A DNA stretch of 64,000 nucleotides from a virus. Position numbers and translations under genes: made by a program. The DNA is taken from the IMG/VR virus record IMGVR_UViG_3300021368_000003, positions 31,400 to 95,399 of that record; one strand, given 5' to 3'. Shown one piece after another: positions 1 to 57,289 of this stretch (positions are counted from its first letter, which is position 1; every line of letters starts with the position of its first letter). The notes under the pieces are model-generated. The model saw only the letters and a list, made by a program, of their open reading frames with translations, did not search any database and was not told the DNA's origin.

Positions 1-651
1 ATAGAACATGTTCATCCCGTGTGGGGTAGAAATGATAATAACTTTGGTTGATTTACCAGAAGAGATAGTAGGATAAACAGAACTGAAAAACTGGTCAGCA
101 ATATGATTCGGAATGAACGCGAATTCGTCCAGAAAGATGACGTTAAAAGACATACCCCGTACAGCAGATGCCGAAGTAGAAGCAGCCATGATTTTGCTTC
201 CGTTCTCCAATTCCAGAGATCCTCGGTTCCACTGACTGATTCCTTGTTGCAACCACTTGGGGAGGTTTTCATAACTAAGTTGTAGACGTTGTAGCATTTC
301 ACGCGCAGTCGCTGCTTTGTTAGCAAGGATTGCTACGTTGACATTATCATTGAACAGTACATACCACAACAGATAGGAAGTCACAATGGTGGACTTACCC
401 GACTGTCGTGGTAGTTTGGCGATATTAAATCTATTGTCATGAAACTTCCTAGTCATATCAACTTGGAAGTCATACATCTCAAATGGGATCAGACCTTTAT
501 CCAGAGACACAATCTTGATGTATTTCTGAATAAAGTAAACTGGATCCTTAGAGCATTTAATAAATTCCTCAATCTGATCAGGCGTAAACGATTGTGCAAC
601 GTTTGCCTTTTTAAGATTAGGATTGCCTAGGTACTGCTGATCTGCACTCAT
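1..651 (-). CDS. gp17: terminase large subunit gp17, 5' part (runs off the left edge; absent from ORF track)
   Basis: Manual translation from ATG at 651: MSADQQYLGNPNLKKAN...AKLPRQSGKST (Walker A)...ELENGSKIMAASTSASAVRGMSFNVIFLDEFAF (Walker B)...ISTPHGMNMFY. The frame is open to position 1, and the start overlaps the upstream stop (ATGA). Confidence 0.97.
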   Translation of the reverse strand, partial: MSADQQYLGNPNLKKANVAQSFTPDQIEEFIKCSKDPVYFIQKYIKIVSLDKGLIPFEMYDFQVDMTRKFHDNRFNIAKLPRQSGKSTIVTSYLLWYVLFNDNVNVAILANKAATAREMLQRLQLSYENLPKWLQQGISQWNRGSLELENGSKIMAASTSASAVRGMSFNVIFLDEFAFIPNHIADQFFSSVYPTISSGKSTKVIIISTPHGMNMFY

Positions 652-5503: not shown

Positions 5504-5524
5504 AAAACCTTACTGTAACTGCAC

Positions 5525-5531: not shown

Positions 5532-5549
5532 ATGTATATGATCGGTATA

Positions 5550-5843: not shown

Positions 5844-6060
5844 TGTTTCTAAATCCCCAGTGATGTTTCCATGGTGGTGTGAGTGGGAGACCCAGTTCCT
5901 TTTCCATTCTGAGTCTCATAGGATAGACCCTAGCACAAATGATGAAGTGTCGCAACTTTAAGTCCAGAAAATAAAACAGTCGCATTGTGGATTCTATACC
6001 AGCATATGCGACCATTAAACAGACTATTGCAACGACAAAATAAAAACCTAGCAGTTCCAT
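5836..6060 (-). CDS. small N-terminally hydrophobic hypothetical protein
   Basis: TM LLGFYFVVAIVCLMVAYAGI; short overlaps with both neighbours. Confidence 0.7.
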   Translation of the reverse strand: MELLGFYFVVAIVCLMVAYAGIESTMRLFYFLDLKLRHFIICARVYPMRLRMEKELGLPLTPPWKHHWGFRNNE

Positions 6061-6452
6061 GCGCGTAAAGATTTCGAGAGACGATCATCCCCAGTATTGT
6101 TGGATGGTTTCTGTCTCTTCCTCATACCTTTCATACGAGCACAGAAAGAACGACGACGAGGATTACCAACCTTTTTACTAGGTGCTTTCAGATCAGACCC
6201 TGGGTTCTCTTTTTCGTAGGACTTACGTCCTTTCTCATTGAGACCACCCTCTTTGTTCTGACCTTCTTTCTTAGTCCAAGCAGCACCTTCCGTACGCATT
6301 GTCATATCAGTAGGCTTCTTCTTCGATACTGCTTTCATTTGCAGTTGAAGTTTCTGCCTATTGATCATCAGTTGCTTACGCTGAATCTGTTGTTGGCGAT
6401 TCTCCATAGATTTATCGCCTGCTTCGGAAATGTACTCCTTGAAAGTAATCAT
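6048..6452 (-). CDS. basic phage protein (DUF6321-like C-terminal domain)
   Basis: GGLNEKGRKSYE..PGSDLKAP..RRSFCARMKGM..SLRAWNC motif common in phages; family name recalled, not searched. Confidence 0.8.
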   Translation of the reverse strand: MITFKEYISEAGDKSMENRQQQIQRKQLMINRQKLQLQMKAVSKKKPTDMTMRTEGAAWTKKEGQNKEGGLNEKGRKSYEKENPGSDLKAPSKKVGNPRRRSFCARMKGMRKRQKPSNNTGDDRLSKSLRAWNC

Positions 6453-27286: not shown

Positions 27287-27289
27287 CTC

Positions 27290-28825: not shown

Positions 28826-28847
28826 CTTTTAGAAATTACCTTCTTTT

Positions 28848-28854
28848 TATTTAT
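28848..28854 (-). promoter_or_regulatory. T4-type late promoter ATAAATA upstream of gp8
   Basis: Intergenic, ~22 nt before the ATG. Confidence 0.7.
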
Positions 28855-28858
28855 GTGT

Positions 28859-30745
28859 TTACTCAGGCTCCTTTCTCACAAGGTTAGTGTATTCTTGCGA
28901 GACAAACGTGCCGTTTGCACCACTTCCGCCACCAGTGATAGTATCGGAGGTAGTAAATTTATAGGTAGTGCCATTGTTGGTTATACCTGTAACCTTCAAA
29001 GTCTTGTAACCATATGCATCTTCTGCTGACTGAATCTCAGCAACGGTAGCAGTTACACCAGTCACAGAACCCGTGACAGTTTCTCCTACTGTATAGTTAC
29101 CGCCTGCATGGTTTTTGAGTTTGAGGGTGGATGCTGAAATGTGTTCAACTCCATCATCGAGTTCGCCAGCAGTTTGCACAGAAGCAGTAAGGGGCACAAG
29201 ACTTGAATCATACAGTTCATCTCCAACTTGGAATAGAGTGGTGTTTTGTCCACCAACAGTTTCTTCAATACCGTAAAGGGTGGAAGCAATACCACCATCC
29301 AAACTGATTTCATCTTCAAAGTCTGTACCAGTATTTACCAAGTCAGGAATGCCATCACCTGCACCATCCAACTCATCATCATCTTCAAACTTAAATCCTT
29401 CTAAGACACTAATAGGATTCTCAAAGGTGACGATAGATGAATTCTCATCTTCTACCAGAGGGTGTGGTCCAACACCAGTACCAGATGATGCTGATGTACC
29501 AGCGATGAATTGAATCACCGAGGTCTTTTCATTAGATCTACCGCCATCAATAAACGCTAGTTCATCGACTTGGAAGATTAGAAATAGTTCTCTGGTTTCT
29601 GGTCGCCAGTCATAAACAATAGCGACCTTGTTAGATTTATCTTCCTGTACTCTTCTGACACGATCAGATACAGTAAAGTTGTAACCAGATCCACCACCAG
29701 GTAGATCAGCAAGACTGTCTAAGATAACACGCTGGTCATAACGGAAGTTAATACCTCTATCACATCCAGTGAAGGAGATAGGTGTCTTACCTGTATATCT
29801 AACAATCTCTCTGCCGATCTGGAACTTACCAGAACCAGGGAATGCAGCAGTGGTCTCGATGTATATCGTAGTATCCGTTGCTGTTGCATCACGGATAAGA
29901 GCACTGATCTCATAGAAGTCAGAGACCAGAGAAGTTCTATTTCGTTGTGTACGAATCAGGTTAGTATCTCTGGTGAAGATAACCTGAGGAGGAGATGTGT
30001 ATCCACCACCAGAATTGAGTAGATCGATTGATTCAATTCTACCCAGATTGATAGTTGCTTCTGCCTGAGCACCAGATCCACCACCACCAATAATCTGAAT
30101 CAGAGGAGGGGTCTCAAAGAATTCACCAGGGTTGGTAACATTGATTGCTTCGATCTTACCGAACTGATTAACCTCAGCAACACCTTCGGCGTTCTGTCCA
30201 CCACCACCAGAAATAACAATAGTAATATCTTCGGCGGTATAGTTTCTACCGTTGTTCTCAACGGCAAGACCAGTTACCTGACCAGTAGTAGGAACAAGTT
30301 CAGCACCAGATCCACCACCACCTTCAAGTCTTGCAGTAGCATCAAAATAACCATCACCAGGTCTAGTCACCTGAATGTAGTTTACAGATCCAGCAGGTGC
30401 AAGAATAGTAGATCCATCAGGACCATATTGATCCTCTTCCCAAAGCACAATGTTTGCGTCTGCTTGGGTGATACCAGTATCAGTAGAATCGATGACCAAA
30501 CGCAAGGGATTATATCCTTCACCAGGATCGATTACATCAACAGATAAGATCTCTCCGTTGTCTGCAATGTTTGCTCTTAGAACAGCGTCTCTGATCGGGG
30601 TGCCACAGTTGCCAATAGACAACTTCGGTGGATCGTTGGGATCATACCCACTTCCACCATTTGTTACAATTACGTCCTTTACACCATATACACTATTGAA
30701 TACGGGACGAATTGCTGCACCTGATCCTGGGACTGTTCTTGGCAT
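28859..30745 (-). CDS. virion structural protein with GGGGSGA beta-repeats
   Basis: Repeats of V..G.GY...P.I..GGGGSGA shared with gp7 and gp8. Confidence 0.85.
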   Translation of the reverse strand: MPRTVPGSGAAIRPVFNSVYGVKDVIVTNGGSGYDPNDPPKLSIGNCGTPIRDAVLRANIADNGEILSVDVIDPGEGYNPLRLVIDSTDTGITQADANIVLWEEDQYGPDGSTILAPAGSVNYIQVTRPGDGYFDATARLEGGGGSGAELVPTTGQVTGLAVENNGRNYTAEDITIVISGGGGQNAEGVAEVNQFGKIEAINVTNPGEFFETPPLIQIIGGGGSGAQAEATINLGRIESIDLLNSGGGYTSPPQVIFTRDTNLIRTQRNRTSLVSDFYEISALIRDATATDTTIYIETTAAFPGSGKFQIGREIVRYTGKTPISFTGCDRGINFRYDQRVILDSLADLPGGGSGYNFTVSDRVRRVQEDKSNKVAIVYDWRPETRELFLIFQVDELAFIDGGRSNEKTSVIQFIAGTSASSGTGVGPHPLVEDENSSIVTFENPISVLEGFKFEDDDELDGAGDGIPDLVNTGTDFEDEISLDGGIASTLYGIEETVGGQNTTLFQVGDELYDSSLVPLTASVQTAGELDDGVEHISASTLKLKNHAGGNYTVGETVTGSVTGVTATVAEIQSAEDAYGYKTLKVTGITNNGTTYKFTTSDTITGGGSGANGTFVSQEYTNLVRKEPE

Positions 30746-32229
30746 TAGACTACTACGATATTACCTTGCATGTTTCCATGAATAGTACACTGATAAACAT
30801 ATGTTGTACCAGCAGCAAGATTCATAGGAACTGTCCAGAATTGAACAGAACTTTGACTTCCAGTTGTACCACTAATAGCAGAACCACCAGCACTCACTCT
30901 CAGTGCGAGAGGGTGTCCAGATCCAGTAGTGTTGTCAAATCTGTAAGTAAATCCACGATACACATACAGGGTGGGGTCGTTTGCAGATACACCACCACCC
31001 GTTACAGTGTAATTGTTGGAGTCAGAAGCACTAAACTCAAAGTTGATACAAGGAGTTGCTACTGCTTCAAATGAGGATCCGTTGTGGACGAGAGTTTGTC
31101 CTTCCTGAGCACTGGGTAGTGCGACAGTGTTTGTAATAGTAAGCGTTGACCCAGACACAGCAGTAGTGATCCCAGTCCCACCAGCGATCGTGATAGTAGA
31201 ATCGGCAGCCGCAGCAGTATAGGAACCTGAGTCACCCGCAGCAGTTTGGAGTACGTTTTGTACGACGTTGGGGGAGTCATTCGTGAATGTGATAGCGCCA
31301 GCGTTTAGGTTGGTGCTAATTCCACTACCACCAGTAAAAGTAATAGTATCAGTGGTTGTAGTCGCTGTTGTTGTTCCGTTGTCAGCACCGAGAGTCGTAA
31401 ATACATTCTGATTCAGATCACCCAGTGTACCAGTCATGTCGATGGTGAGTGTATCACCAGACATTGTGGTAGAGATGTTCGTACCGCCGACAATGTTGAG
31501 AGTGTCGTTAGCAGCAGAAGCAGTTGTTGTTCCTGTGTCGCCTGTGAAGGTTTCAAAGAGGTTTTGAGTGGTTCCACCACCGCCGCCACCAGATCCTTGT
31601 AGATCGTTAGCAGGTTGCCAAGCAGAAGCAGATGCTACCCATTTCAGAACCTGACCATCAGACGGACCACCATTAACAGTGGTATCAACGTCAGACAGAA
31701 CAGTAATACTTTGGTTCTCATCTACCAGGGGGACCCAAGCGGCAGAGTGAGCAAAATATGCTTTGCCAGTGCCATGAACGTGAGCAAGCATACCGTGATG
31801 GTTAGTCGCATCAGGAAGGTCGCCCAGAGTAGCGTAAGGGGCATACCATTTGAGATATCCATCGTCACCGTCAATGTAAGTGTAAGCAGATCCAGACCCA
31901 CCTGCCCAGAGTTTGATATCCCCAGTTCCAGTTTGATAAATTACGATATTGTCAGTTCCATCAGACGTGATCTGATGACCATTAGTATCCAGGTTACCAG
32001 TCAGCGTGTCAAAGTTTCCAGCACGAAAAGCAGCACTAGGTGACGTGCCCCATTTCAGAACCTGACCCTCAGTAATACCAGCACCGATATCAAACAAGAT
32101 ATCAGTTTGGTTACCTAGTTTCTCATAGAGTTCATTAAAATTGGAGTTTGCTTTGATGGCACCATCACGGAGGGTATCACCCGTTCCGTCATTCGCCGCA
32201 GAACCAATGCCAATCGTCTGTTTTGCCAT
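30745..32229 (-). CDS. baseplate/fibre protein with gp9/gp10-like N-terminus and C-terminal cupredoxin-like domain
   Basis: MAKQTIGIGSAANDGTGDTLRDG..NSNFNELY; C-terminus GHP...YQCTIHGNMQG. Confidence 0.85.
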   Translation of the reverse strand: MAKQTIGIGSAANDGTGDTLRDGAIKANSNFNELYEKLGNQTDILFDIGAGITEGQVLKWGTSPSAAFRAGNFDTLTGNLDTNGHQITSDGTDNIVIYQTGTGDIKLWAGGSGSAYTYIDGDDGYLKWYAPYATLGDLPDATNHHGMLAHVHGTGKAYFAHSAAWVPLVDENQSITVLSDVDTTVNGGPSDGQVLKWVASASAWQPANDLQGSGGGGGGTTQNLFETFTGDTGTTTASAANDTLNIVGGTNISTTMSGDTLTIDMTGTLGDLNQNVFTTLGADNGTTTATTTTDTITFTGGSGISTNLNAGAITFTNDSPNVVQNVLQTAAGDSGSYTAAAADSTITIAGGTGITTAVSGSTLTITNTVALPSAQEGQTLVHNGSSFEAVATPCINFEFSASDSNNYTVTGGGVSANDPTLYVYRGFTYRFDNTTGSGHPLALRVSAGGSAISGTTGSQSSVQFWTVPMNLAAGTTYVYQCTIHGNMQGNIVVV

Positions 32230-32251
32230 CTTCTTACAGTTTGTACGTTGT

Positions 32252-32258
32252 TATTTAT
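32252..32258 (-). promoter_or_regulatory. T4-type late promoter ATAAATA
   Basis: Contains the TAA stop of the upstream gene. Confidence 0.65.
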
Positions 32259-33865
32259 GTTGCGTCAAAAGACACAGTGGTGGAGTCAAGAGTAGATTCG
32301 GTAGAATCGAACGAATCTGCGCTACCACCAGAGAATCCAGTGACAGTCAAAGTCGCAATTTCAGTTTGTAGTGGGGAGTTAGATGCGGGGGTTGCACCAA
32401 CAGGTCCACTAATTTCGCAACGGAACTTATACCCTGTCATATATGACAGAGCAGTAAAAGCATAAGAGCTGCTAGTTGCACCAGTCAGAACTGCGAAGGA
32501 GAAACCACCATCAGTGGATCTATACCATTGATATCGTTTGGGTCCATCTTCGGGACTGATTGCAGCGGTAACCGTAAAGGTAACCAACTGTCCACTTCCA
32601 ATCGTGGCGTTCTGTGGTTGCAGAGCGATCTGAATCGTTGCAGGGATAACAGTCCCACCATCTCCACCGCCAGTAGGTGGTGGTGGGGGTGCTGCACCAT
32701 TGTTTGCTGGTTGATCAATAGCCTCACGAGTAGTAAGACCAACCATGTATGGGAACATAGGAACCAGGTTCTGCTCACTATCTAATTCAGTAGATAAGAA
32801 GTAAGCATATGTTCCATCAGGATATTCAGGAGTAACACAAAAACGTCCATTATGGAAGTCTAGGTTACCAAGACCCTCAGCGTACTCCCAGTCCTGCATC
32901 AGAGCGCCTGCTGGGGGGTTCTGCTGGGACGATCCATAGCTTGGTCTACCCTCCGCTTCTTCTGATTTAACACGATAAGAAGTAGTTGCTAAACCTATCT
33001 CACTATTATTGTTCCAGGGGTCGTTATAAAAGTAGGGTCCATATACTGGGAATCCATCAAAGGCAATACCAACAAGTTTGGAATGACCATCAGGATGTCT
33101 TAGGTTGTCACCGTTATACTGAGAAGAACCATAGTAGTCATTGTAAGTTGACATGATGGCATTATCTTTCCAGCATTCTAGAAACTCAGTATCGTGGTAA
33201 TGATATTGTCCAGTTACTTCTGGATGTCCACCACAATTATCTTCACCAAAATCTACTGGTGAGTTGGGGTAATGTGCGTTCCAGTTGAATCCTGTTGGGG
33301 GATTGCCTCCGCTTCCAGCCGATGGGTTGAAGAAGACAACACCATTAGCAGCAATGCCGATAGCACCCAGTGGAGTTGCGACTCTACCGTTTCTCTGGTC
33401 ATAATAGTTGTAAGTTCCTGTATGTGCTTCTCTCGTGTAATCCACGATGAGTTGCAAGTATGTACTACTAGCACGCCAGAATTCACCAGCAGTTGCAGTT
33501 TGTGCAGTGCCCTTGTATATAAAGACTTGCTTCTTTTCGTCTGCTGTACCAGCATCAAATACGAAAAGAATTCTATCGCCAACACGGATAGAACCAGATG
33601 TTGTTGTGCCTAAAAGACCATTATCATCTACGCTTAGAGGGATCTCAATAATATATCCATTTTGTGTAAAGGTGTTACTATCAAATGCTCTGGTAATACC
33701 AAATGTTCCACCTCTAAAATAAAAGTCATGGTCAAAATCCTGCTCAGTAACCGCATTAGGGTTATTAGCATTAGGAAACGTACCATAGGCGACGGGATTG
33801 GGTAGACCATTCGCCGAAACGTCTATGATACGGGTGCCAGCGTTATAAGTTGCGGTTCCTGCCAT
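32255..33865 (-). CDS. YHYH-domain structural protein with C-terminal Ig-like domain
   Basis: IGIAANGV, GGHP..GQYHYH, HSKLVGIAFDGFPVYGP and NGRFCVTPEYP motifs; Pro linker followed by QP..YQWYRS..FRC Ig motif. Confidence 0.88.
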   Translation of the reverse strand: MAGTATYNAGTRIIDVSANGLPNPVAYGTFPNANNPNAVTEQDFDHDFYFRGGTFGITRAFDSNTFTQNGYIIEIPLSVDDNGLLGTTTSGSIRVGDRILFVFDAGTADEKKQVFIYKGTAQTATAGEFWRASSTYLQLIVDYTREAHTGTYNYYDQRNGRVATPLGAIGIAANGVVFFNPSAGSGGNPPTGFNWNAHYPNSPVDFGEDNCGGHPEVTGQYHYHDTEFLECWKDNAIMSTYNDYYGSSQYNGDNLRHPDGHSKLVGIAFDGFPVYGPYFYNDPWNNNSEIGLATTSYRVKSEEAEGRPSYGSSQQNPPAGALMQDWEYAEGLGNLDFHNGRFCVTPEYPDGTYAYFLSTELDSEQNLVPMFPYMVGLTTREAIDQPANNGAAPPPPPTGGGDGGTVIPATIQIALQPQNATIGSGQLVTFTVTAAISPEDGPKRYQWYRSTDGGFSFAVLTGATSSSYAFTALSYMTGYKFRCEISGPVGATPASNSPLQTEIATLTVTGFSGGSADSFDSTESTLDSTTVSFDAT

Positions 33866-36800: not shown

Positions 36801-39800
36801 CTCAGTAGACTCTTGCTCATACTCGAAGCGATACTCAATAGCATCCATCAGAGTATCATCCAGATAACGGAAGTATTCGTTATTTGTACCCCACTCAGCA
36901 GTGTTGTTCTGATCGTAGAGAATACGCTTAGATGCCTCAGAGATGCGTAGCAGATAGAAGATCAAGTGTTGTCTTACAACACCATCATATGCGATGAAGT
37001 TACCTTCGCCATCGAACCAGGAGTTCGCCAGTTTCATGGAACCAGCGTTACCACCAGTGTTGAGGTCATAGATGATTGCATCCATCACCACCTGAGCGAA
37101 GGACTCAGGAGCAGCGGTGCCAGGATACTGTGTAGTCACTTCTGCGAAGGACTTAGCAACGATAGCGTGCTTGTTGAACACCAAGCGACGTGCAGTTGCA
37201 CGATCAGAGAAGGATCCACCACCAAGGGTTTCACTCATCAGATCGAACAGAGTATCAGCAGCAGAGATTACGTTGTAGCAGGTGTACAACTGATAGGTAG
37301 TATTGCTGTTGTAAGGCGTAGTTCTAGTAACAGTGCTGAGGTGAGTCGGCGTAGGTGATCCAGATGCTGCCTTAGCGACAGTATCGATCACGAGGTCAAA
37401 CAGAGTCTCGATAGCAGATGCAGTCTGCTCACAAGTGCTGTTCCAACCACCAGTTGCACCCTCGTCATAGGTAACAGACACGTCACGGTGAACCATGTCG
37501 TTGCTGTACTTGATTGGCCAGATGTTCGGCAGAGACTTGGTGATAGTTCCGTCAGTGATGCTTGCAGGAGTTGCAAGTGTATCATTGACGATATCCATCA
37601 GAGTTCTCATGGTGGATCTTACGTCAGCACATACACCGAAGGTTCCATCGGGAGCACCATCAGCAGTGATGCTGTACTGAGGATCGCTGTATGGGAAGTA
37701 ATCAAGATCACCGTAGAACTTCTGATTGTAAGAATGACCACCTTGCTTAGTGATTGTGTCATTCTGCATCACATCAACAGCAAGATCGAATGCCTTGTTG
37801 AGGATCCAAGTGGTCTCAGTTACCTGCGAGGAAACGTGAGCCACAGCAGCAGACTGAACATAGAGTTCAGCGGCGTGGAAGACTTTGTTGTTACCACCGT
37901 ATTTCAGGTTGAATACCAATGCACTCAGAATGTCAGTAACGTCATGAACACAATCGATGCTACCAGCAGTAGTAACAGCGTTGTCTTCTGCACGTACGAA
38001 CGTATGTGCGTATTGCTCACCAGCAGGAGAAGCACCAACGTTAACCGTGATCGTGGTAGCAGTTACGCCAGTGATTGCGATAGAATCCTCGTAATAAGGA
38101 TCAGTGGTGCGAGGATAGGCGTGCTCAGTAGCATTTCCATCCTTAGTGCAGGTGAACACCAAAGAATGAGGTTGGATGTAGATCTGGTTGCCAGCAACCA
38201 AGGAGTGAGATCCAATGGTCAGTTCCAACACACCCGAAGCAGGAGTATAGGTAGCAGCAGTAGGAGTGAAGTTCACACCACCAGTAGTACCACCGTTGAT
38301 GTTCAGTGAAGGATATTGCTGTTGACCCAGGTAAACTGCTTCCTCAGCAATGAATCGGATGTTTCTATCAATGATGTTAGCAGCATCGATATAGCGGTCG
38401 CGTACAGCATTCTGTTCGTAAGAGCTGGTTTCCACTTCGTCGAAGGATTCACCACCCAGGTCGCCACCACCAGCAGCGCCGTCACCTTCACCAATTTCGT
38501 TGTAAATGTAGATGTTGTCACGTCCGAATCCATTTCTCATGGTCAGGATGCACATTTCCTGTGCAAACTTCATAACCCATTGTGATGCCTCTTCTTCACC
38601 TTCGACGTGGAGGAGAGTATTGTCTTCTGCATTCAGATAGAGTGCAGCAGCATCCCAGGTCTTAGAGTTACCACCCAGACGCATGTCGTGAACGATTGAT
38701 TCGATAATATCAACCACATCATCAACACAGTTCTGACGACCGCCAGGAACCTTGAAGTTGATGAACTTGGACATGTCGTTCATGGTATGAACTGCTTCCC
38801 AAGCGATCACATACTTGTTACGCTCGATCATGTCGGCAGCATCCATGAGGCGATCATGGTTAGGACCAGTACGAGTCTGATCAGGTGCCTGAGGATCAAT
38901 AGTGATCGTGGTGTCACGATACACCTCACGGGTAGTCCAGATTGCAACGTAGTAATCGTCTTGATATCTACCATCAATACCCAAACCAGCAGCAGTAGTA
39001 CCCTGTGTCAACAGAGTATTGTTGATTGCGTGCTTAACGAGTTTTTTGGTGTACTCAAAGGCGTCCAGCATGGCGCTGAGTTCACCTTCAACATGAAGGA
39101 TCTGGTTATCTTGGTTGATATATTGATCCAGGACATATTGGGTAGAAGAGTTACCACCAGTCAGCAGGTCAGTGATGACAGCAGGCAAGATGAACTTCTT
39201 GATGTCTCTGAGACAATATGGTTCGCCATAACCAGGCATCTGCAAGAAGTCAAAAGTACGGATTTCTCCGAGAGGTCCTTGAATTTCAGCAGCATACTTG
39301 TCTTGGATGTATCCGACAACTTCCTCAGCAATGTAATCGCGGTTTTTCCAGATAGCATCACCACCATCACGGAATCTATCGCCAGTTGGGCAAAGGATGT
39401 CAATGATAGTATCGGCAAGAGAACTAATCTCGTTAGTTACCTGGGAAGATGCAGGAGAAGCGAAGTTGTTGGGGATACGAAGGATGTCAGTGTACTTGGC
39501 AGGAACAGTGTCACCATTCTCATCGACCATGGTTCCATAGTTGACCAGATCACCGCTAGTGGTAGTGATTACATAGTTCATAACATCTGCCAGTTCATTC
39601 CATGCGTAGATGGATTGCAGCAGTTCGTTACCAACGTAGTTCAGACCACCAGACTTGGTGAGATATCCTCTACCAGAGATCACGCTGTTGTAGTTACCAC
39701 CGTAACGGATGTCAGCGATGATTGCTTTCAGGATGTACTCTTTGGTATCGCGAATACACTTGTTAGTGCCCTGCTCACTGGTCTCAGTATCACCAGGGAT

Positions 39801-42800
39801 GATGAAGTCAGGATACTTCGCTGCCATCTTACCGACAGCAGTTTCTGAGATCCAATCGAGGTTGAGTTCAAGCATGTCGGCACACTTTCTGTGCTCGTCA
39901 CGCGAGAGGTCAATGTCCTCAATGATAATTTCTTTGGTGTCGTAGTTGACTTTCTTAGCAGTTGCAGCAGAGTTAGTCTGACCAGTATATACAGCAAATG
40001 ATTCCTCAGTGCTGCAAATGATGTCCTGCTCCATATCCATACCGAACAGAACGTTAGCAGTGTTCGTAGGATAAGTTGTACCAGGAGTAAAGGTTCCAGA
40101 ATACAGGGACTCGTTATGAATAATGAAGTTGTCAACATGACCTTGGAAGGTGTTGGTGCCATCCCAACCAGCCATCATTCTGAATGGACGCTCTACATAA
40201 GTGTTGGTGTCAGAGTAATCACCACCAGTTTGTGTACCGTTAACAAATATCTTGGTGATGCCAGTTGTTCTGGTAATTGCAACGTGAGACCATTGATCTT
40301 GTGCCATGTTGTGAGCACCAGAGATATGATCAGTTCCGTTGAGCCAATACTTAATGGAGTTGTTCTCCAAGTAAATCACAGGAGATTGAGTCAGAGTGGC
40401 ACTTTGAGTTCTACTATCGAAGAGATACTTGATACCAGACTGAGGGTTAGTAGAAGGACGCAACCACATTTCAATGGTGAAGTCACCAGTACCAAACTTA
40501 GTCACATTAGACAGTTCATGAGACAGTCCAGTATGAGTCTGGAAGTTCAGTGACTGAGTACCTGCTTTCTTCTGCAACTTAGTCAGAGTGATCGTACCAT
40601 TAGCAGTCAACTTAGAGTTGGTAATGATCTCTCTATCAGTGAAGGTGCCAGTAACAGCGTTAGTGAACAACCACTTCAAACCAGAGTTAGTTCCCTTCGC
40701 CTCAAAGGATGCACCAGAGGACGTGCCTCTAATGGTATCGCCAGGAATGAAGAATCCGTTACCACCACGATCTTTGTAAGCAAGCTTGAATACACGGAGG
40801 TTCTCGTTCTCGTTGTATGTACCATCAGTGATAGGACTGAGGGAGTTGATGCTGTTGAGGTTACCAGCGCCGATTGCAGTTGCTGCAATCTCAACCAGAG
40901 TATGAATACCTGCCTGTACATCAGCACAGTTCTGGATACTTTCGTTGCTACCAGAGGAGTAGTTAGGATCGTAGTATGCTGCCTCAGTACCACCACCAAC
41001 GAAGATGGCGTTATCAACTGCATCGATAAAGGTGTGAGTATAACCACCACCAGTCGATACAGCGTTTGCATTAGCAGATACGAAGGTGTGAGGATACTGC
41101 TGACCAGTTGGAGAAGCACCAACGTTAACAGTAATCGTAGTTGCCGTTACGGCGTTGATAGCAAGAGTTGCACCAGCAGCAGGGTCAGATGCACGAGGAT
41201 ATGTGTGGTTAGAACCATTGTTATCCTGAGTACAAGTGAAGGTCAGTGAATCAGTAGCAATTCTGATGTCATCACCAATTTCCAGCGTGTGGGAACCAAT
41301 GGTAAGTTCCATGGAACCAGTTGCAGGATTGTAGTTCGCACCAGTAGGAGTGAACTGAACCAAAGGAGATGCACCGACGTTAACGTCAATGGTGGTGCTA
41401 GTTACACCAGTGATTTGCAGAGGTGTGTTGAATGCAGGATCACCAGCACGAGGATACTCATGGAACGTAGCACCACCATCCATGGTGCAGGTGAAGTTCA
41501 TCGAGTAAGGTCTGATCGTTACAGAATCAGAAGTCGAGAGACTGTGAGTACCGATACCGATTGTCATCACACCCGTTGATGGGGTGTAAGTGGCAGCCGT
41601 AGGAGTGAACTGTTGCAGAGTTGTGCCAGCAGCACCCAGGTAAGGACCTTGATAAGTCGAAGGATCCTTCAACATGTATCCCAGTTCTGGGGTTCTGGTG
41701 TTGACCTGTACGTAGAGGAGGTTGTTGATAGCACGACGTGCCATCTCGCCTGCCTTTCTAAATGCAGTCAGGGACTCAGCAAGTTCTCCAACCAAACCAT
41801 TGCTGATAGGTGAACCGTTAGTGAAATACTTTCTAGCAAACTCAACAATGTTGTAGTTACCATCATCACTGATGTCATCAGACAGAGCATCGACCATCAG
41901 ACCGATGTCACGACGACACTTAACTTCGTTAGCAGTGTATTGAGTCGGAACTACCTCATCGAGGATGTCAGCAAGGGAACCAGCAAGCAGGATGACAGAG
42001 ATGTTATCGCAGAGAGTTTGCAGCGCAGATTGTACGTCAGCGCAGTTATTAACTCCATAGTTAATGTCATTAGAACCAGCAGTGCCGTAGTTATTACCAG
42101 GAGAAGGATCAGCAGTGATACCAGTTCCAGTAGAACCACCAGCGGTTCTCTCGTTGTAGAAGATGTAAGTAACACCATCGACAACCTCAGATCCATTCAG
42201 GTCATTTCTGAGTGCCTGACGCATCAGTTCAGTTGCCTTATCAAATGCAAACTCAGTAGCAGCTGCTTCGTTGTTTACATACAGGAATTGTGTACCATCA
42301 GTGCTGAAATACTTCTGTGCAAGTTTTCTGGTATATACTGTACCGCCACTATAAACGTCGAATGACAGAGCATCAATGTAGTAACCAATGTCGCGCTTGC
42401 ACTTGTCAGCAGAAGGAACATTCAGAGAAGGATACTCAGCAGTCATCAGAGCATAAGCCTTCGCCTGGATATAATGCTTATTCTTCTGAATCAGACGATA
42501 TGCATCAGCATATCTGGACCAGGCGTCGGTCGCGTTGTCGCCAGGATAATAGAACCCAGGATGCTCAACAGCAATCTCAGCATTAGCAAAGTCAACGATC
42601 TCATCCTTGTTCAGGGCGATCATACGACCAGCGTCTTTCCATCTGTTCTTAGAGTCGGTAACAGTGTTGCCATACTCGAAGGTGATAGAGCGCAGTTCAT
42701 CACCAGCAGCGAGAGTACCACCAGTTAGGTTCTCGTACTCAATCTCAGTAGATCTAACTTCTTCAAAGTCAAGGAAGTCAGCGTTAATTCTCTGATCAGC

Positions 42801-45800: not shown

Positions 45801-48800
45801 GATAGGACCGATTGCTTTGACCGAAGTGGTGGAGTAGGAAGAGTTGGGACGATCAAACTCATCTTCACCAATTTCTGCATTGGTAAATTCAGGTTCATGA
45901 AGGAGTTTGAATCTAAACTCAGTATCAGAAATAACTTCGCTGATAGTAAACCTACCATCAAACGGAGTCTTGATCACATCAATAAAGGAGTTGTTACCAA
46001 CAGGAGAGTTGGCACCCAGTCTTGATGGGTCAAAGTAATAAGTGATATTAGTAACCTCACCACCAATGGTGAACTTGACCACAGGTGTCTCAGTTGCAGA
46101 GGACAAACCAGGAGTACCTTCACGTTCAATAACGTTGAAGGAGTATTCCAACTTATACTGGTTGTCCTGAGAGAATGACAGATAATAACCGAAGTTAGAA
46201 GGATCACTCATATCAAAGATATAAGAGTGATTTCTAGTCAGCATCAGAGTTGGGTGCTTAGATGCAATCTTGACACCAGTTACACCAGTTGCAAATCCAG
46301 GATCAGCAGTTGCAGTAGCACGCAGTCTGTAAGTAAAGTCTCTGGAAGAGAATACTTCTTGGACAAAGAACGAACCATTAAACTCACCAGTGTCGAATCC
46401 TTGTACAAACAGGATGTCACCAGCAGTATAGTTATGAGGAGTTACAGCAGTTGCATAGATTAGGTCAGATCTACCTTCACTGGTTCTTATAATGTCCTTA
46501 TCAAGAGTAACAGTCAGTTTGATAGTCTTGACAGTAGTAACACCATTGATATCTGCAATCTTGGCATTATCTTCATTAGGACCAGCAGTAATGCTGCCAC
46601 CCAGAGATACTACGTCTCCGATGATGAAGTCAGAGTCAGAATAGGTATCGATAATAGTTACTCTATACTCTTCTGCTCTGAAAGGTCTGAACCTTGCATA
46701 GTCAGAGAGTGGATCATATGTACTAACGTAGGACCAGGTGACGTTTCCATCAGTGACAGTTCCAGAAGTATGTACAGGAGCAGTGCCACCACTGATACCA
46801 TCAGAAGTTGCTTGATACTTATATCTGCCATAGTATACAAAGTCATTGGTGGAATAGGATCTATTGGTTTCCCACTCATCTACCAAAGGTTGAGGCCAAG
46901 CATAATCCAAGAGATTTACTTGGATGGTTCCAGCAGCACTAATGTAGTTCCAAGTTACAGCACCATCAGTTACAATACCGATCTCATGAGTTGGTGCAGT
47001 AGCACCAGAAGTAGCAGTATTAGTAGCAGCGTAGATCTTACCGTCGCTGTATACCTGATCATTGACGTTATATGCCTTACCTGACACCCATTCGTCCTGA
47101 GGACGAGAAACAGTAAAGTCAATCTCTTCAATCAGGTTTTCTTGACCAGTAGAGTTTCTGAATCTATCAGTATTGTTAAAGTTACCAAAGATCTTACCAA
47201 TCTTATACTCAGTACCATAACCTGGGTTGTTGATAGGACCAACAGGAGTCTCTACAATCGTACCAAACGCTTGGGTGACACCCTGAGCGTTAAATTGCTG
47301 AATAACAGTACCCTTATCAAACTTAACGTCTTGGTTGAAGGTAAACTTCTTAACGTTATCCATCTTAGAGTATGCTGCATCTCTAAGGTAGTATTTTGCA
47401 ATTACATTAGGAGAAATAAGCAGTCTCTTTCCGAGAGGTGAGGGTACAGTAGAAGTCTTAGAAGTGTAAGTCGTAATAGACTCACCGAAAGTGTATGTAC
47501 CGTAATTGAGAGTAGAGGTTACATCAGAGTAATCAAGAATTTGCAGACCAGAAGAACCTTCGTTCCAAACTGTGATAACAGGATTGTTCAGGGTATTAAC
47601 ATTGAGGTTAGTTGCCTCACTGAATACAATACCTTGATTATTAGCAATCTGATAATCACCACGCTTGCTATGGAGACGATCAAACTTGATCATATCCATA
47701 CCAGAGTTCTCAGTATCAATTCTGTAACGCTCAGTGGGAACAGTCAGAGAGGAACCAGTATATACAGCACGCGGTTCTACGATGATGTCATCAACCCAAC
47801 CAATAAAGGAGGTGTTGGTGGCACCAGAAGTAGCATTAGAAAGAACTGCAAGGTCATCCATTGCAACATCTTCTGTTCTGGTGGCAGTACAAACTTGTAC
47901 ACCATCGAAGTATGCAGAATATACAAAGGAACCAAGAGTAGGTTCTTCCTTGACCAGAACAATGTGATGCCATCCCTCAGATGACATTGTGGTGAAGTAG
48001 GTAGAACCCACAGATACCACGGTAGCACCACCACCACCCTGAGGAGTGATATCGAGGATGACTTTACCGAAGTTAGGGTCACCAACAGTACCATTGATAG
48101 AGTAGATAACCTTATCGCCATTATCGGCAATACAGGTGATCATTTCCATCTTAGGATTATTGCTAGCATGGCTGCCAATCATCTTGACCCACATGCCGAC
48201 AGTCCAGTCGTCATTGTTATCAAAGTCAGTCCAATCCAAACGACCTGCTGCTTGCAGTTTTAGTGAAGCAGAACCAAACTTATAGATGGTATCATCTCTG
48301 AGGATGTTAGCACCACCAGTTACAGTGACAGCACTCTTCTTCTGCTTGGTAGCATCGAAGTAAGTATCAGCACTATCGTTGAAACGATATACAGCAGTAG
48401 GAACAGATCTTTGAACGTTGACTGGAACAATAATGTCACCAGAGTTATCAACAGTGTGATTGAAAGCAGTAAATCCGAGACCGTAATCAGTGTCACTATT
48501 AACAGAATCCCAAGCACCACGAATGATGTTGGACTTGTAAAGTAGAGTTCCATTGTACTTAAAGTTGGAAGCAACTACTTGTTGATCATTATCTTCGTAC
48601 TTGATATGGGTAAGAACATTGACATTACCGAATTCATCAAGACTGATACCAGCATGATTGATAGATTCAAATGTAACACTAGGAGCAATAATCTTAGAGA
48701 AGTACCACTCAGGAGCACTGAGAGTAAGTCTGATTTGATCCATCGCAATCTTGAAGAATGCAACACCATAGTGCTTGGTGCCATTCCACATATCACATAC

Positions 48801-51800
48801 AAAGAACAAATCGTTGTAGGAATCCAGAACAAACTGAGGTCTTTGTACCTGACCACCAGAGACTGCCAACTTCTTGACATAACTCATTTCGATGTTGGCA
48901 CCGTCATAAACCATCTCACCAAACATGAGATCGTTATTGTCTAAATCAATACCAGCAAAGACGATTTTATTGTTACCAATGTAATACAACTGGTGCATTT
49001 GCTCACCTTCGCTGTCAGAAGCGAACTTACGCTTCTCTACAACGTCACCTTGGTTATTGAGCTGCATAACCCAGATATCATCAGGATCTGGGGAGTTGGT
49101 GTCCGTCCAACCACAAATATAAAGTCTCTGCTCGTCATCGAGGTAAATATCACCTGCATAGTCGCGACGAGTCGCACCAGAGACACCAGCAATCTCTTTC
49201 TGGAATCTGATGATACCTTCGGGATTATTTGCGTTATCAAGACCAGATTCGTACTTAACAAGCAGGATATCGGGATTATATCCAGCAGTGCTCTGAGATT
49301 CGGTTTCACCGAGCACATAGATCAAATGATTGTCCTCAGAAGTCTCGTCGAGGTAAATCTTCTTAAAACGTGCTTTTTTGATGCTAGAAGACGGCAGAAT
49401 ACTTCTATCCCAAATAAGTCCACCCAGATCGGAGAATTTAGCGAGGAAAGCAGAAGTATCGCCATTTGTTTGAGTCAGTTCGCCACAAACGTAAGTAGTA
49501 CGGTCGGAAGCGGTCTGAATGTCGAAAATTTCAAATGTAGAGGCATTAGCACCACTTTCGACATATTGGTTGACCCAATAGTAAGTTTTCTTAAATTGTT
49601 GAGGGTGAGAGACTCTGATTTGAGGAACATCCTCAATATCGTAGTCAAAACCAGAATTGATGATATCAACACGGTCAATCTTACCAGTGGTGGTATCCAG
49701 GATAATATCAAGTTCAACGTCCTGTCCAGAGTCAGTAATGATCTCATAAGTGGGAGGAATTGCCTCATTGTAACCAACACCGATCTGATCAACACTAATT
49801 GACTCAATACCAGTCACAACGGACATGTAGAATCGCTTATTAGTGTTATCAGTGATAACTTTCGACGAAACAATAATTTCGTCTTGTGCAATCAGTTCGT
49901 GATCGTTAGCAGTGGTAATTTTACCGTATGGTTCATCATCAATGATCTCTTTACGATATCCAGAGATACTTTGACCAGTAACAGACTCAATTTGAGCAGA
50001 AGCACCAAATCCATCAGTTCCAGTGTTATCAAAGAACAAAGTATCGTTAACCTGGTAAGAAACACCAGGGTTCTCGATAACGAATCCGTCAATTTGTGCA
50101 GACTCGAATTTAGTAGTATTTTCGACCTCAATATCCACTCTGGACTCGGTAGAGACCGTTGGGAAGTAATCATAGATCTGCAATGCCGCTTCTTCGGTCA
50201 TTGCTTGCAGAGTTGCAATTTCAACGGGACTGATGATGCCATCACCGTCCATATCTTCAATTTCAAAGATAATTACGTCACCTTCACGCTCAGTAACGAG
50301 TTCATCAGATCTTTGGTTAGGTTGACGATCAATATCGATGTCAACATTAGCATAGGGGTCTCTGAAACGAGAAACATCAAGAGGAATGTTTTCTTGGGTT
50401 GCAGATTGACTCAGGTTCCAAGTATCAACAACAGAGTTGAACTGAGGACCAACAATATAAGGGAATACAGGAAGACCAGCGTCAGATTCGTCAATAGTTA
50501 CAAAATAAGCGTAAGTACCAGCAGGATAGTCAGGAGTCTTACAGAAACGACCGTTATAGGGGTCTAGGTCGCCTCTCTGGAAGTCATATTCGTAATCATT
50601 GATGAAAGTACCAGCAGGATAGGTTGCAAGCAGCGGACCATCCGTTCTGGCAGGAGTTGGGTTGGTATCAATGTTATATACAACCTCATCCTTCAATTTG
50701 TAAGAAGAACGCATTCTTCTAAGACCACTGTTCTGATCAGTCGGGTCAATATAACCGTAAGGACCGTAAATCGGGTTACCATCAAACGCCCAACCAATAA
50801 TTGGAGAGTGTGCTTCGTTCTGACCAATCTCACGGAAGTTCTGAGTCTGAGGGTCAAGAACTACGTTGTCACCAACCACATAACGGAGTTCTTTCGGGTC
50901 AGAGACGTGTGCATATTCACCACCATACTGGTTATTGAAACCAGTGAATACATAACCACGAGCAATGTCATATTTGGAGTTAAGTTCATATTCAAGGTTT
51001 TTATTCCACTTGAATACAGTTGCTTCAAAGGTTGCAAGTTGACCAACTGCCTCTAAACGTACAGTTGTTTGACCTTGTGTATATCCAACACCTTTGTTAG
51101 TGATTTGGACAGAAATAACCTTACCTTTGTCCTCACCAAGGGTTCCAATGACAGCAGTTGCCTGAGCACCGAATCCATCACCGTTAATGTATACGGTAGG
51201 AGCAGTGGTATAGTTTTCACCAGAGTTAATGATAGCGATCGACACAATACGACCGTTAATCACAATAGGTTGTGCCAGAGCACCTTCACCAGAGTTCAGT
51301 TTGATCTCGGGAGTAGAAGTATATCCAGATCCAGCAGAAGTCAGTGAAACGCCAGAAATAGGACCACGAACTTGTGCAGTAGCAAGAGCACCAGCACCGC
51401 CACCACCAGTAATAGAGATAGTGGGTTGAGAAGTATAACCAGTACCAGCATTCTCTACCAGAATACGAGTTACACGACCATTAGTCACAACTGCCTGAGC
51501 AGTTGCACCAGAACCACCGCCACCAACGATAGAGATCAGAGGTTGAGCAGTATACCCAGAACCCTGATTGGTAACATCGATAGAGAACAGTGAACCATTA
51601 ACAGTAACGCTAGCAGCAGCACCAGTACCACCGCCACCAGAAATTTGAAGTGCAGGCTTGTTACCAGCATCATAATCGATACCATTGTTGGTAATAGTGA
51701 TTGCAGTCAAAGGACCAAAGGTCACATAGTCCTTAGACTTGTAAGACCAAGCAGCAACACCGTTTACCCAAGAACCAACGGGGTTATTAGGTTGAATAGT

Positions 51801-55126: not shown

Positions 55127-57289
55127 TTAGAAACAGGAGTCGATGTCGGGATACTCGAAAGCATCAATCGGGTAGTTAATCGTATTTATGTTGCCCCCAC
55201 CATAGTTCCAACCAGCAAAGTTGAAGGGGTCAAAGTTAGGAATGTCACTGGGGTTAGTGACAAAATCAATCGGGTAAACTTCGGGGTTGAAGATGGTTGG
55301 GTCAACACCTGGCGGGATGGTAAGACCGTTACCATCGGGGAGAACCACAACGGGAACTCTCGTGTTGCCATCAGGGGTATCAGCAATATTTAGGGGTCCG
55401 ACACAGACCTTTCCTGTATCATAATCTACCGTTCCGACAGACTGATTCAAGACAACTTCTTTTTCATTTCTATTAGTTACCATGATCAATCCGCCATTAC
55501 CATCGTCTCTGATGTTAACGGGGACAAGTGTTGAAGTCGTGATTTCTTCTGAACTGAAAATTGCATCTTCCAGAGCAGATGAAAAACCTGCCTGCTCGCC
55601 AGCAGTTTGTACCAACGAACCTGCCGCTTCACCAGCAGCAATCTGGTCTGCTACATCTTCGGTATAACCAGTTGCATAGAACGAACCAGTTTTAACGGAA
55701 GAAAACTTAGGATTACAGTTGCCACCGTCGCCATTGCCACCGTCGCCGCCAGTTCCATCACCATCTCCATTGCCACCAGGTCCACCGTAGTCGCCTGGGT
55801 CAACAATAGGATTATTAAAGTCAAGACACTGAGTAAAGATATTACCAAACGTGAATTGGTCAAGGTTTTGACCAATAGTCATCTGACTGGTAGTACCAGC
55901 AATAGCATTATCAGAAGAGTCAATCACAGCATTGAATTTAGACATTTCAAGACGACCACCGAAGCGATTATCTCTATTCTGTGAGTTAAACTTGTCAATA
56001 GATTTAAGAATCTCAGATGCCAACTCGTTTGCAGATCTGGATGTCTTGTTTCCGTCGTAGGAAGGGTAAACCTTTGGAGACAGATAGTAAATTCTTGGGT
56101 CAACAACGATCGGTTGGATCGATGCCATGGAGTAGTCAAGCAGTTGGTTCTGAATACGCTTCTTAGTCGTAGTGTTGAGGTTCACACCAGACTTAGAACG
56201 AACTGCGATGAATACCTTGCCATATTCAGGAGGTGATAGTTTCTCACCACCATAAGCAGTAACTGCTGCTGCCTGAGGGAAGATATCCTTTACAATGTGA
56301 GCATAGTCGTTTTCTGTAACTGCTCTGTTTTGGGTCGAGAACGCCCTTGGAGCACGAAACTTGACTGATAGGGCAGATTCCCTGTCTTCGCCTGCCTGAG
56401 ACCCGTCTATGGTCGCCAGAGACATCGATGAGGGCAGAATAGGACGACCAGTGTTGTCAATAGCACGTCCAATGAAATTAAACTTGGTTGCGCCGTTAGC
56501 AGTAGGTCCGTCAGTGGCAATATAGGTCAGTACAATAAATTCATTATCAATCAACTTACGTCCAAGAACACCATCACCGAAAACAACCTTATATCTAATG
56601 TCTTCGGTCTCTTCTAAGAAATAAACACGAGAAGTAGAGTCAAGTGCAGTAACGTTTCTAGAAAGAGAGTATTCGTCAATCTCAGCAGACTGTTCATTTG
56701 GTTTTACTGCTACAACTAGCAGTTCAGTATCAACACCGTCAGCAGGAATCACATATTCTTGCTTCTTAGTATCATCAACGGTGTAATTAAAGGTGAGTAG
56801 GTTGCCCTGATAGATCACCAGTTTCTCAAAACTTGCAATACCAGTATTCTGGTCCACCGCTACCTGGGTGTCCTTCATAATGGCATAGGTATATGCTTCA
56901 CCGTCCACCTGAGAGATGAATACATCACCTGCTTTGATAGTAACTGAGTCAGGGTAGGCAGAACCACCAGGAAGCAGTTGAGTCTGTGCAGAGACGCGCA
57001 CACACGCCTTAGACGCCTTAATAGAACGAGGCGTATAGTTGATCTGTTTGGCAATGCGAACAATGTTGTCTCTAACAGTCGCACTTTCCAGGAATGCTTC
57101 ATTCATTGACATGTTTGCCAAGAACGCAGCGTAGTGCGTATTGTAAGCAAGGATGTCGATCAGGTAAGAGGCAGTCGATCCCTCAAAATCATAATCCGTA
57201 AATTCAGGACGAGTCCTGAGATAGGATTTGATCGATTCCTTAATCTCAAAAAAGTCAAGAGACGTTAGTTCTGAGGGTGTTGCTGGCAT
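55127..57289 (-). CDS. gp6: baseplate wedge subunit gp6
   Basis: LDFFEIK, FTDYDFEGS, LAYNTHY, NEAFLESA, FGDGVLG and QNRAVTENDY motifs. Confidence 0.97.
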   Translation of the reverse strand: MPATPSELTSLDFFEIKESIKSYLRTRPEFTDYDFEGSTASYLIDILAYNTHYAAFLANMSMNEAFLESATVRDNIVRIAKQINYTPRSIKASKACVRVSAQTQLLPGGSAYPDSVTIKAGDVFISQVDGEAYTYAIMKDTQVAVDQNTGIASFEKLVIYQGNLLTFNYTVDDTKKQEYVIPADGVDTELLVVAVKPNEQSAEIDEYSLSRNVTALDSTSRVYFLEETEDIRYKVVFGDGVLGRKLIDNEFIVLTYIATDGPTANGATKFNFIGRAIDNTGRPILPSSMSLATIDGSQAGEDRESALSVKFRAPRAFSTQNRAVTENDYAHIVKDIFPQAAAVTAYGGEKLSPPEYGKVFIAVRSKSGVNLNTTTKKRIQNQLLDYSMASIQPIVVDPRIYYLSPKVYPSYDGNKTSRSANELASEILKSIDKFNSQNRDNRFGGRLEMSKFNAVIDSSDNAIAGTTSQMTIGQNLDQFTFGNIFTQCLDFNNPIVDPGDYGGPGGNGDGDGTGGDGGNGDGGNCNPKFSSVKTGSFYATGYTEDVADQIAAGEAAGSLVQTAGEQAGFSSALEDAIFSSEEITTSTLVPVNIRDDGNGGLIMVTNRNEKEVVLNQSVGTVDYDTGKVCVGPLNIADTPDGNTRVPVVVLPDGNGLTIPPGVDPTIFNPEVYPIDFVTNPSDIPNFDPFNFAGWNYGGGNINTINYPIDAFEYPDIDSCF

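Follow-up and report, generated by a model that had tools for sequence, protein, structure and literature searches.

A 64,000-nucleotide stretch of virus record IMGVR_UViG_3300021368_000003 (positions 31,400 to 95,399; hereafter the window) encodes a giant structural protein with seven domains that, judged by sequence and by predicted structure, descend from a phycobiliprotein (PBP) and are closest in shape to the PBP beta subunit. The same two kinds of evidence show that these units multiplied by repeated insertion, with a unit or a small beta domain entering the predicted loop between helices B and E or between helices G and H. We consider the best overall explanation to be that the PBP-derived domains bear bilins and possibly make adsorption respond to light, an account to which we give an even chance.

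The relationship to PBPs was detected with profile methods. The Pfam PBP family (PF00502) matched the C-terminal half of the giant protein with 40.3 bits (E 4e-10; cut-off 22.2). On units scanned singly, it matched unit 3 with 23.1 bits and unit 1 with 20.7 bits, just below the cut-off, in both cases within profile positions 32-101, and it failed to match any of the remaining five. These five are tied in by mutual similarity, captured in a hidden Markov model (HMM) derived from all units, with the modeled fold as a further tie for units 5 and 6. We aligned residues 4155-4480 with orthologs from IMG/VR (25 sequences) and searched the resulting profile against all PDB sequences. PBPs or their derivatives accounted for 44 of the 46 matches, the best being CpcA (E 0.0014). 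The same alignment was compared by hhalign with ten genuine PBP genes (CpcA/B, CpeA/B, MpeA/B, Apc) taken from a Synechococcus metagenome-assembled genome (MAG). This comparison gave a probability of 92.1% (E 6.2e-7, 57 columns) and placed Cys4241 and the accompanying Arg and Asp of the phage protein on Cys82, Arg84, and Asp85 of CpcB. Profiles were needed because a single-sequence phmmer search of the region against the PDB produced only marginal PBP matches (E about 0.3). An ESM Atlas look-up of unit 1 was uninformative (best score 0.75, to a phage fiber cluster). On the strength of the profile comparisons we conclude that the units are homologous to PBPs and that the similarity is not due to chance.

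The unit-built HMM found exactly seven copies, at residues 4238, 4398, 5118, 5299, 5461, 5720, and 6004, and no other convincing copy anywhere in the 7079-residue protein. A first-pass annotation of this DNA had described about seven helical repeats resembling PBPs, including their bilin site, and the profile results bear out both the number and the likeness. The six cysteines that it named (C4241, C4402, C5122, C5303, C5465, and C5724) all stand in the motifs it quoted, and the copy without Cys that it placed at ~37000-37200 lies near residue 6008.

Structure prediction agrees with the sequence assignment. We modeled residues 4155-4480 with AlphaFold2 without templates (model 1; predicted local distance difference test score, pLDDT, 81.6; predicted TM score, pTM, 0.84). 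The top PDB matches of this model in Foldseek were PBP beta subunits (probability 1.0, target TM about 0.6, E about 0.1). VIA-align paired model residues 18..225 with PBP chain residues 7..177 at Z 16 and a root-mean-square deviation (rmsd) of 1.9-2.0 Å over 136-139 residues. All 50 of the matches listed were PBPs or derivatives, 197 chains reached Z >= 8, and the Z of 16 exceeds the level at which the tool advises caution for helical proteins (about 13). Because the match covers almost all of the beta chain, a complete PBP fold is predicted for unit 1 (residues 4173-4379). A second AlphaFold2 model (model 2; residues 5240-5975, from a 16-sequence alignment) is of moderate confidence (pLDDT 64.5, pTM 0.54), with helices scoring 75-87. 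Single PBP beta chains of 172-177 residues aligned with residues 178..677 of this model (Z about 15, rmsd 2.0-2.4 Å, 132 residues), and other PBP chains (4..177) aligned with residues 202..611 (Z 15.3), the part that holds unit 6. The models support the PBP-type globin fold, with its X/Y hairpin and helices A, B, E, F, G, and H, for units 1, 5, and 6 (Z 15-16, rmsd 1.9-2.4 Å, 130-140 residues, chain residues ~7-177), the outcome of an AlphaFold and Foldseek check that had been proposed with the first-pass annotation. Units 3, 4, and 7 are assigned to the family by their sequence similarity to the other units.

The weakest of these results, namely the phmmer and Foldseek E values and the five of seven units without a single-unit Pfam match, could also come from a helical repeat that arose by chance or convergence and is unrelated to PBPs by descent. 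Four independent lines nevertheless converge on PBPs (Pfam, the profile search of the PDB, hhalign, and the structural Z of 16), and the motif lies in register. We regard this alternative as effectively refuted, with a negligible chance of being right.

Model 2 shows units nested inside one another's loops. Helices B to G of unit 5 (model 2 residues 181-288) are predicted to be closed by a helix about 370 residues further on (659-681), because single PBP chains align across both parts. The G-H loop between them holds unit 6 and a beta domain. Unit 6, closed by helix 592-611, in turn holds a beta domain within its B-E loop. Going by the order of nesting, helix 710-726 probably closes unit 4, and a helix at Cys4732 probably closes unit 2; in orthologs that lack the beta insertion, a Cys-capped helix follows unit 2 directly. 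A beta domain of about 95 residues with a conserved F-[ST]-C..D..H.Y-P-R..D-P pattern recurs, always inside the loops of PBP-like units. It is found in the window phage (40962-41684 and 37965-38279, minus strand), in P-HM2, and in a divergent lineage described below. The conservation of its Cys and His points to a separate site within this domain.

This architecture bears on the main rival to a pigmented virion, according to which the units are pigment-free scaffold: rigid helical hubs of PBP descent that hold and space beta, LamG, and carbohydrate-binding modules, with the Cys, Arg, and Asp kept for folding, packing, or redox. Every unit is interrupted or flanked by beta domains, and nesting suits a scaffold. 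So do metagenomic arrays of up to 35 units per protein. We judge the scaffold explanation somewhat unlikely on the evidence of the conserved residues and associated genes presented below.

We surveyed the distribution of the units among phages. A tblastn search of 50,697 phage records with residues 4155-4480 returned 323 matching records (Synechococcus 256, Cyanophage 56, Prochlorococcus 10, Marine 1). The same search with a query from the most divergent lineage returned 348 records, all from cyanophages or uncultured marine phages. A widened profile found no units at E <= 0.1 in T4-like phages that infect heterotrophs (Sinorhizobium phiN3 and phiM12, Caulobacter Cr30, and Methylophilales Melnitz). 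Structural matches in BFVD were tail or structural proteins of Synechococcus phages and proteins of uncultured Caudovirales. These searches support a restriction of the domain to cyanophages among sequenced and cultured phages. Among 1.84 billion cluster representatives, 1355 proteins matched at E <= 1e-3, and those that we looked up were metagenomic. The largest array comprised 35 units in one protein of 6382 residues; metagenomic proteins of 4800-6400 residues carry 30-35 units each, well above any isolate examined. Archaeal (Euryarchaeota), Flavobacteriales, Legionellales, Lewinella, and Nonlabens carriers were rejected, as the unit-bearing sequences in those assemblies are phage contigs, of cyanophage type. 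The Nonlabens xiamenensis isolate assembly contains a whole 188-kb cyanophage genome with psbA, a CpeT-like open reading frame (ORF), and eight units.

The divergent lineage is represented by three contigs binned with a Rhodobacteraceae MAG (C86, C108, and C110 of G001), each encoding a giant protein of ~3700-4000 residues with 11 units, and by G007 (IMGVR_UViG_3300022921_000002), a 221-kb genome rated complete by CheckV whose units are 49% identical to those of G001. The contigs have 36-40% G+C and T4-like baseplate modules, and we rejected the Rhodobacteraceae host suggested by the bin label on these grounds. The nearest relatives of their gp6 are in Sinorhizobium phages (39%) and Caulobacter phage Cr30 (35%), followed by cyanophages (31%). 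The complete G007 genome lacks both psbA and CpeT. It has a heme oxygenase gene (143997-144476) adjoining a gene for a ferredoxin-dependent bilin reductase (144822-145445). Cassettes of hemO with pcyA or pcyX are known in marine and freshwater phages, some of which have been proposed to infect non-phototrophs, and their benefit has only been speculated on (PMC11480375).

We compared the units at the positions that correspond to PBP bilin sites. The Cys equivalent to Cys82/84 of PBPs (84-like Cys) is present in six of the seven window units, four of which have the full C-x-R-D motif. The K-C-[RK]-R-D motif of unit 2 is invariant across the 25 orthologs, and the Cys, Arg, and Asp of unit 4 are invariant across the 16. 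Conservation was scored on 18 units that share ~25% mutual identity, seven from the window protein and eleven from a very distant phage. Only four columns are at least 90% conserved: the Cys, the Asp three residues on, a second Asp, and a Tyr. In eight phages, 69 of the 74 units examined keep the 84-like Cys. The counts are 6/7 in the window, 6/7 in its closest isolate (Synechococcus phage S-WAM1), 5/5 in P-HM2, 9/9 in S-PM2, 3/3 in Syn9, 7/7 in Syn1, 0/3 in P-SSM4, and 33/33 in the very distant G001 contigs, where all have K-C-x-R-D. A scaffold does not account for finding a bilin-site Cys and Asp in the set of four best-conserved columns at such low identity, and it leaves the 33 intact motifs of a distant lineage unexplained.

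A second Cys recurs at the start of the closing helix H. It is found in five of the seven window units (C4360, C4732, C5831, C5897, and C5948); helix H of unit 3 begins with Ser, so this unit has no second Cys. C4360 is invariant in the 25-sequence alignment, as are C5897 and C5948 in the 16 sequences of model 2. The end points of the structural alignments pair model residue 225 with residue 172 of phycocyanin (PC) beta or 177 of phycoerythrin (PE) beta for unit 1, residue 677 with PC beta 172 for unit 5, and residue 611 with chain residue 177 for unit 6. By offset, C4360 would lie at beta-153/158, C5897 at beta-153, and C5831 at beta-158, a placement that counts back from the last aligned residue and assumes an ungapped helix H in place of a residue-level alignment, and to that extent tells against the bilin account. 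The offset suggests that the helix-H Cys of the three modeled units occupies the second bilin site of PBP beta subunits. The T-type lyase CpcT serves Cys-153 of the beta subunit (PMC10452541). Helix-H Cys residues also occur in Syn9 (3/3), P-HM2 (at least 4/5), one S-PM2 protein (4/4), S-WAM1, and P-SSM4 (at least one), all of which are lower bounds from a crude regular expression that missed C4360 and was supplemented by eye. The same procedure found none in the units of the G001 lineage. A scaffold likewise offers no explanation for a second Cys at what would be the other canonical site of attachment.

The conserved site might serve a role other than bilin binding, such as holding heme or another tetrapyrrole, binding a metal, or supplying a reactive or structural Cys, for example in inter-subunit disulfides that stabilize the baseplate. 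In favor of such a role, disulfides are stable outside the cell, where virion proteins are found; a Cys and a His (F-T-C..D..H.Y-P-R) are also conserved in the companion beta domain; and the globin-like superfamily includes heme binders. The hhalign comparison, however, puts the motif in register with the PBP bilin site and not with the heme histidines of globins, and no heme-ligand pattern is conserved across the 18 aligned units. The 84 and 155 sites are about 30 Å apart in known PBP structures, and this distance makes a disulfide within a unit unlikely if the fold holds. We consider a non-bilin role improbable. The chance that the units are covalently chromophorylated with bilin appears to us about evenly balanced.

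We examined whether the units occur together with phage bilin genes. The role of phage cpeT has been called "unresolved" and that of pcyA and pebS "a mystery" (Sullivan 2010, PMC3037559), and most cyanomyoviruses encode the T-type bilin lyase CpeT (PMC3037559). We scored 23 complete myovirus genomes for units and CpeT (PF06206), and 17 of them also for bilin reductase (PF05996). Units and CpeT are both present in 17 of the 23 (P-HM1, P-HM2, MED4-213, S-PM2, Syn1, S-WAM1, S-ShM2, S-SM1, P-RSM4, Syn33, Syn19, S-SSM5, P-SSM7, P-SSM4, P-SSM3, P-RSM1, and Syn9) and both absent from the remaining six (P-SSM2, S-SM2, S-SSM7, P-TIM68, S-CRM01, and S-TIM5), with no discordant isolate. A one-strand gene order of cpeT, a 2-oxoglutarate (2OG)-Fe(II) oxygenase gene, a unit-bearing giant "short tail fiber" gene, and gp12 is found in S-PM2 (163952-177267) and Syn1 (19938-33236), with cpeT 0.7-1.4 kb upstream of the giant gene. 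The oxygenase gene sits between that of the lyase and that of its possible substrate in both phages. The RefSeq entry of S-PM2 (NC_006820 168556-173383) annotates 16 tRNA features within the coding sequence of this "short tail fiber" gene, which looks like a coordinate or annotation artifact. The association with CpeT and the bilin cassette is unexplained by a scaffold. The CpeT of P-HM1 is said, in work by Gasper et al. from 2017, to bind phycoerythrobilin (PEB) without transferring it to host phycoerythrin. The G001/G007 lineage lacks both CpeT and the helix-H Cys; this joint lack, a single post hoc observation, would fit a model in which CpeT serves the helix-H Cys.

Published adsorption phenotypes can be set beside the unit counts. 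Liu et al. (2019, PMC6628666) report that P-HM1 and P-HM2 fail to adsorb without light, that P-SSM2 does so in the dark but to a lesser extent than in the light, and that the podovirus P-SSP7 can likewise adsorb in darkness. Adsorption of S-PM2 depends on light and is independent of host photosynthesis, according to the account of Jia et al. 2010 given in PMC6628666. Liu et al. suggest light-sensitive receptors or tail fibers (PMC6628666). We counted five units each in P-HM1 and P-HM2, nine in S-PM2, and none in P-SSM2 or P-SSP7. A link between the repeat and light-dependent adsorption, raised in the first-pass annotation, agrees with the phenotypes of all five phages, a comparison that spans only three or four independent lineages. 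We regard gating of adsorption by the units as possible but doubtful.

Like the small number of lineages in the adsorption comparison, several other findings weigh against pigmented virions. All three units of P-SSM4 (57001-77000) lack the 84-like Cys and have Lys, Gln, or no counterpart instead; one clade in the 25-sequence alignment has Tyr for this Cys in unit 1; and unit 7 of the window is fully degenerate at the site. Loss of the Cys from units that are themselves kept is what a scaffold would allow. Although its units lack the 84-like Cys, P-SSM4 retains CpeT, a bilin reductase, and one or more helix-H Cys residues. For S-ShM2 and P-SSM7, the match to CpeT is weak, at 23 and 28.6 summed bits, respectively. 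A gp6 homolog is present in 22 of the 23 myovirus genomes, and in the gp6 tree the four marine phages without units form one clade (SH-aLRT, an approximate likelihood ratio test, 99), with S-CRM01 as the outgroup. The CpeT pattern can therefore be explained by only one or two events and carries no statistical weight. We rejected it as statistical proof: a naive Fisher test gives p ~1e-5 (17/0/0/6), and a sign test cannot reach significance given this tree. Among the 17 genomes scored, the unit-less P-SSM2 and S-SSM7 encode a bilin reductase, and the unit-bearing S-PM2, Syn9, Syn1, and others do not. We also rejected the proposal that the units explain the bilin reductases of cyanophages, since reductase presence does not track the units, and this lack of covariation suits a scaffold. 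Of the co-occurrence with bilin genes anticipated in the first-pass annotation, the CpeT part holds in 23 of 23 genomes, representing one or two independent events, and the reductase part does not. Its broader idea that the domains are a viral substrate accounting for phage bilin-synthesis genes in general is weakened by P-SSM2, which has a reductase and no units. G007 has units without CpeT, and the gp6 of the G001/G007 lineage is closest to that of phages of Alphaproteobacteria.

We compared the phage units to known systems. PBP beta subunits (CpcB, CpeB, and cryptophyte PE/PC beta) share with them a globin-like helical fold over almost the entire chain (Z 15-16, rmsd about 2 Å) and C-x-R-D in register with Cys82/84, Arg, and Asp. 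The second phage Cys would match at the helix-H N-cap by offset, and the phage units are ~160-200 residues long. Identity to PBPs is ~15-28%. Unlike PBP beta subunits, which are free proteins of 17-20 kDa, the phage units are domains of virion proteins of 3000-7000 residues, which sit recursively within one another's B-E and G-H loops and are broken up by beta domains. PBPs assemble into (alpha-beta)3 rings with linkers, whereas the phage units are tethered and nested in one chain. The phycobilisome core-membrane linker ApcE resembles the phage proteins in having a PBP-fold domain with a loop insertion inside a large multidomain protein, and its bilin-binding domain (4xxi_A) was among the structural matches of model 2 (Z 13.7). 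ApcE attaches its bilin autocatalytically. It differs in having one PBP domain and in being part of an antenna, while the phage proteins have 3-35 units in a virus particle. Phage CpeT and the hemO-pcyA/pcyX/pebS genes handle bilins in the same phages, with a benefit described as unresolved (PMC3037559, PMC11480375). They are separate genes, tied to the units by co-occurrence and neighborhood, a tie that fails for the bilin reductases of cyanophages. A full-text literature search, whose coverage excludes subscription journals, turned up no account of PBP-like domains in structural proteins of phages.

The positions of the units and of their surroundings are collected in Table 1.

Table 1. Features of the giant gene and its neighbor in the window. 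Nucleotide positions count from the first letter of the window; all features are on the minus strand.
Feature	Nucleotides	Residues	Evidence or remark
gp6-like baseplate wedge gene, just upstream of giant gene	55127..57289		72% identity to S-WAM1 gp6
Giant structural gene, 7079 aa	33882..55121		ORF list and translation; T4 gp7 (baseplate wedge) position
YHYH domain (PF14240)	50490-50933	1397-1544	E 1e-28
CBM_5_12 carbohydrate-binding module	47001-47093	2677-2707	Sub-threshold
Region of seven PBP-like units	36852..42659	4155-6090	Pfam, unit HMM, motif check
Unit 1, predicted complete PBP fold	41985..42605	4173-4379	AlphaFold2 model and VIA-align
Unit 1 84-like Cys	42399-42401	4241	K-C-K-R-D
Unit 1 helix-H N-cap Cys	42042-42044	4360
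Unit 2 core, helices E-F-G	41694..41933	4397-4476	HMM and AlphaFold2 model
Unit 2 84-like Cys	41916-41918	4402	K-C-R-R-D
Two beta domains, apparently inserted in unit 2 G-H loop	40962..41684		Read from translation; F-T-C..D..H.Y-P-R..D-P
Candidate closing helix H of unit 2	40866..40928		Begins at Cys4732 (N-C-A-D-V-Q); motif scan
Laminin_G_3/concanavalin-like domain, between units 2 and 3	40104..40514	4870-5006	PF13385, 56.7 bits, E 4e-15
Unit 3	39372..39869	5085-5250	PF00502 on unit alone (profile positions 33-84) and unit HMM
Unit 3 84-like Cys	39756-39758	5122	K-C-I-R-D
Unit 4 opening part, helices B to G	39024..39380	5248-5366	Helices in AlphaFold2 model
Unit 4 84-like Cys	39213-39215	5303	Y-C-L-R-D
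Unit 5 opening part, predicted within unit 4 G-H loop	38541..38864	5420-5527	VIA-align
Unit 5 84-like Cys	38727-38729	5465	C-V-D-D
Unit 6, predicted within unit 5 G-H loop	37572..38399	5575-5850	AlphaFold2 secondary structure and VIA-align
Unit 6 beta domain in its own B-E loop	37965-38279	5615-5719	Predicted beta strands
Unit 6 84-like Cys	37950-37952	5724	C-V-H-D
Unit 6 closing helix, first residue Cys	37629-37631	5831
Predicted closing helix H of unit 5	37362..37433		Begins at invariant Cys5897; VIA-align
Candidate closing helix H of unit 4	37227..37280		Begins at invariant Cys5948; model helix 710-726, paired by nesting order
Unit 7, degenerate	36852..37229	~5965-6090	No Cys, Arg, or Asp at site; motif check and HMM

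The gene order around the giant gene supports a T4 gp7-type position, by synteny after gp6. S-WAM1 has the order gp25, gp6, a 6737-residue protein, structural proteins, and gp8, which matches the window, and its giant ortholog is annotated as a baseplate wedge initiator or virion structural protein. Annotations of the giant genes in other relatives include short tail fiber. The Pfam Baseplate_wedge model scored 25.4 bits against the giant protein, slightly below its cut-off of 27, and the protein also matches PHROG baseplate wedge and virion structural families. T4 gp7 is likewise encoded after gp6, but the window protein is seven times its size. The source record is a 95-kb fragment estimated at 53% complete. 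It contains neither CpeT nor a bilin reductase gene, which is uninformative because the record is incomplete.

A pigmented virion could arise as follows. Bilin, made by the host or the phage, would be attached within the infected cell at two sites per unit, the Cys of C-x-R-D (equivalent to Cys82/84) and the helix-H-capping Cys (equivalent to beta-153/158). Attachment at the helix-H Cys would fall to the T-type lyase CpeT of the phage, and the 84-like Cys would receive its bilin from a host S/U-type lyase or by autocatalysis. Once assembled, each virion would carry tens of bilins on the baseplate and fibers. With roughly 60 bilins per virion, we estimate an absorbance of about 0.01 for a preparation of 1e12 particles per ml, low enough that a color could have escaped notice. 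More speculatively, absorbed light might shift the conformation of the baseplate or fibers so that adsorption proceeds in the light, and this response could be the unexplained light dependence of S-PM2, P-HM1, and P-HM2 adsorption. In its fullest form, which we put forward tentatively, this model proposes that T4-like cyanophages and the psbA-less bilin-making lineage build covalently pigmented PBP domains into baseplates and fibers as a virion photoreceptor gating adsorption, and that phage CpeT and hemO/bilin-reductase cassettes serve at least partly to pigment the virion and not the host antenna.

Three puzzles of cyanophage biology could share one answer: light-dependent adsorption, the role of CpeT, and the presence of bilin cassettes outside cyanophages. 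A bilin-accepting virion domain, if real, would make all three directly testable. Even without pigment, the units represent a host light-harvesting fold that has been taken into use as a structural component of the virion and built up by nesting domains recursively, found in 1355 cluster representatives and in up to 35 copies per protein. Pigmented or not, the domain is of interest as a case of host-to-virus exaptation and as a protein architecture.

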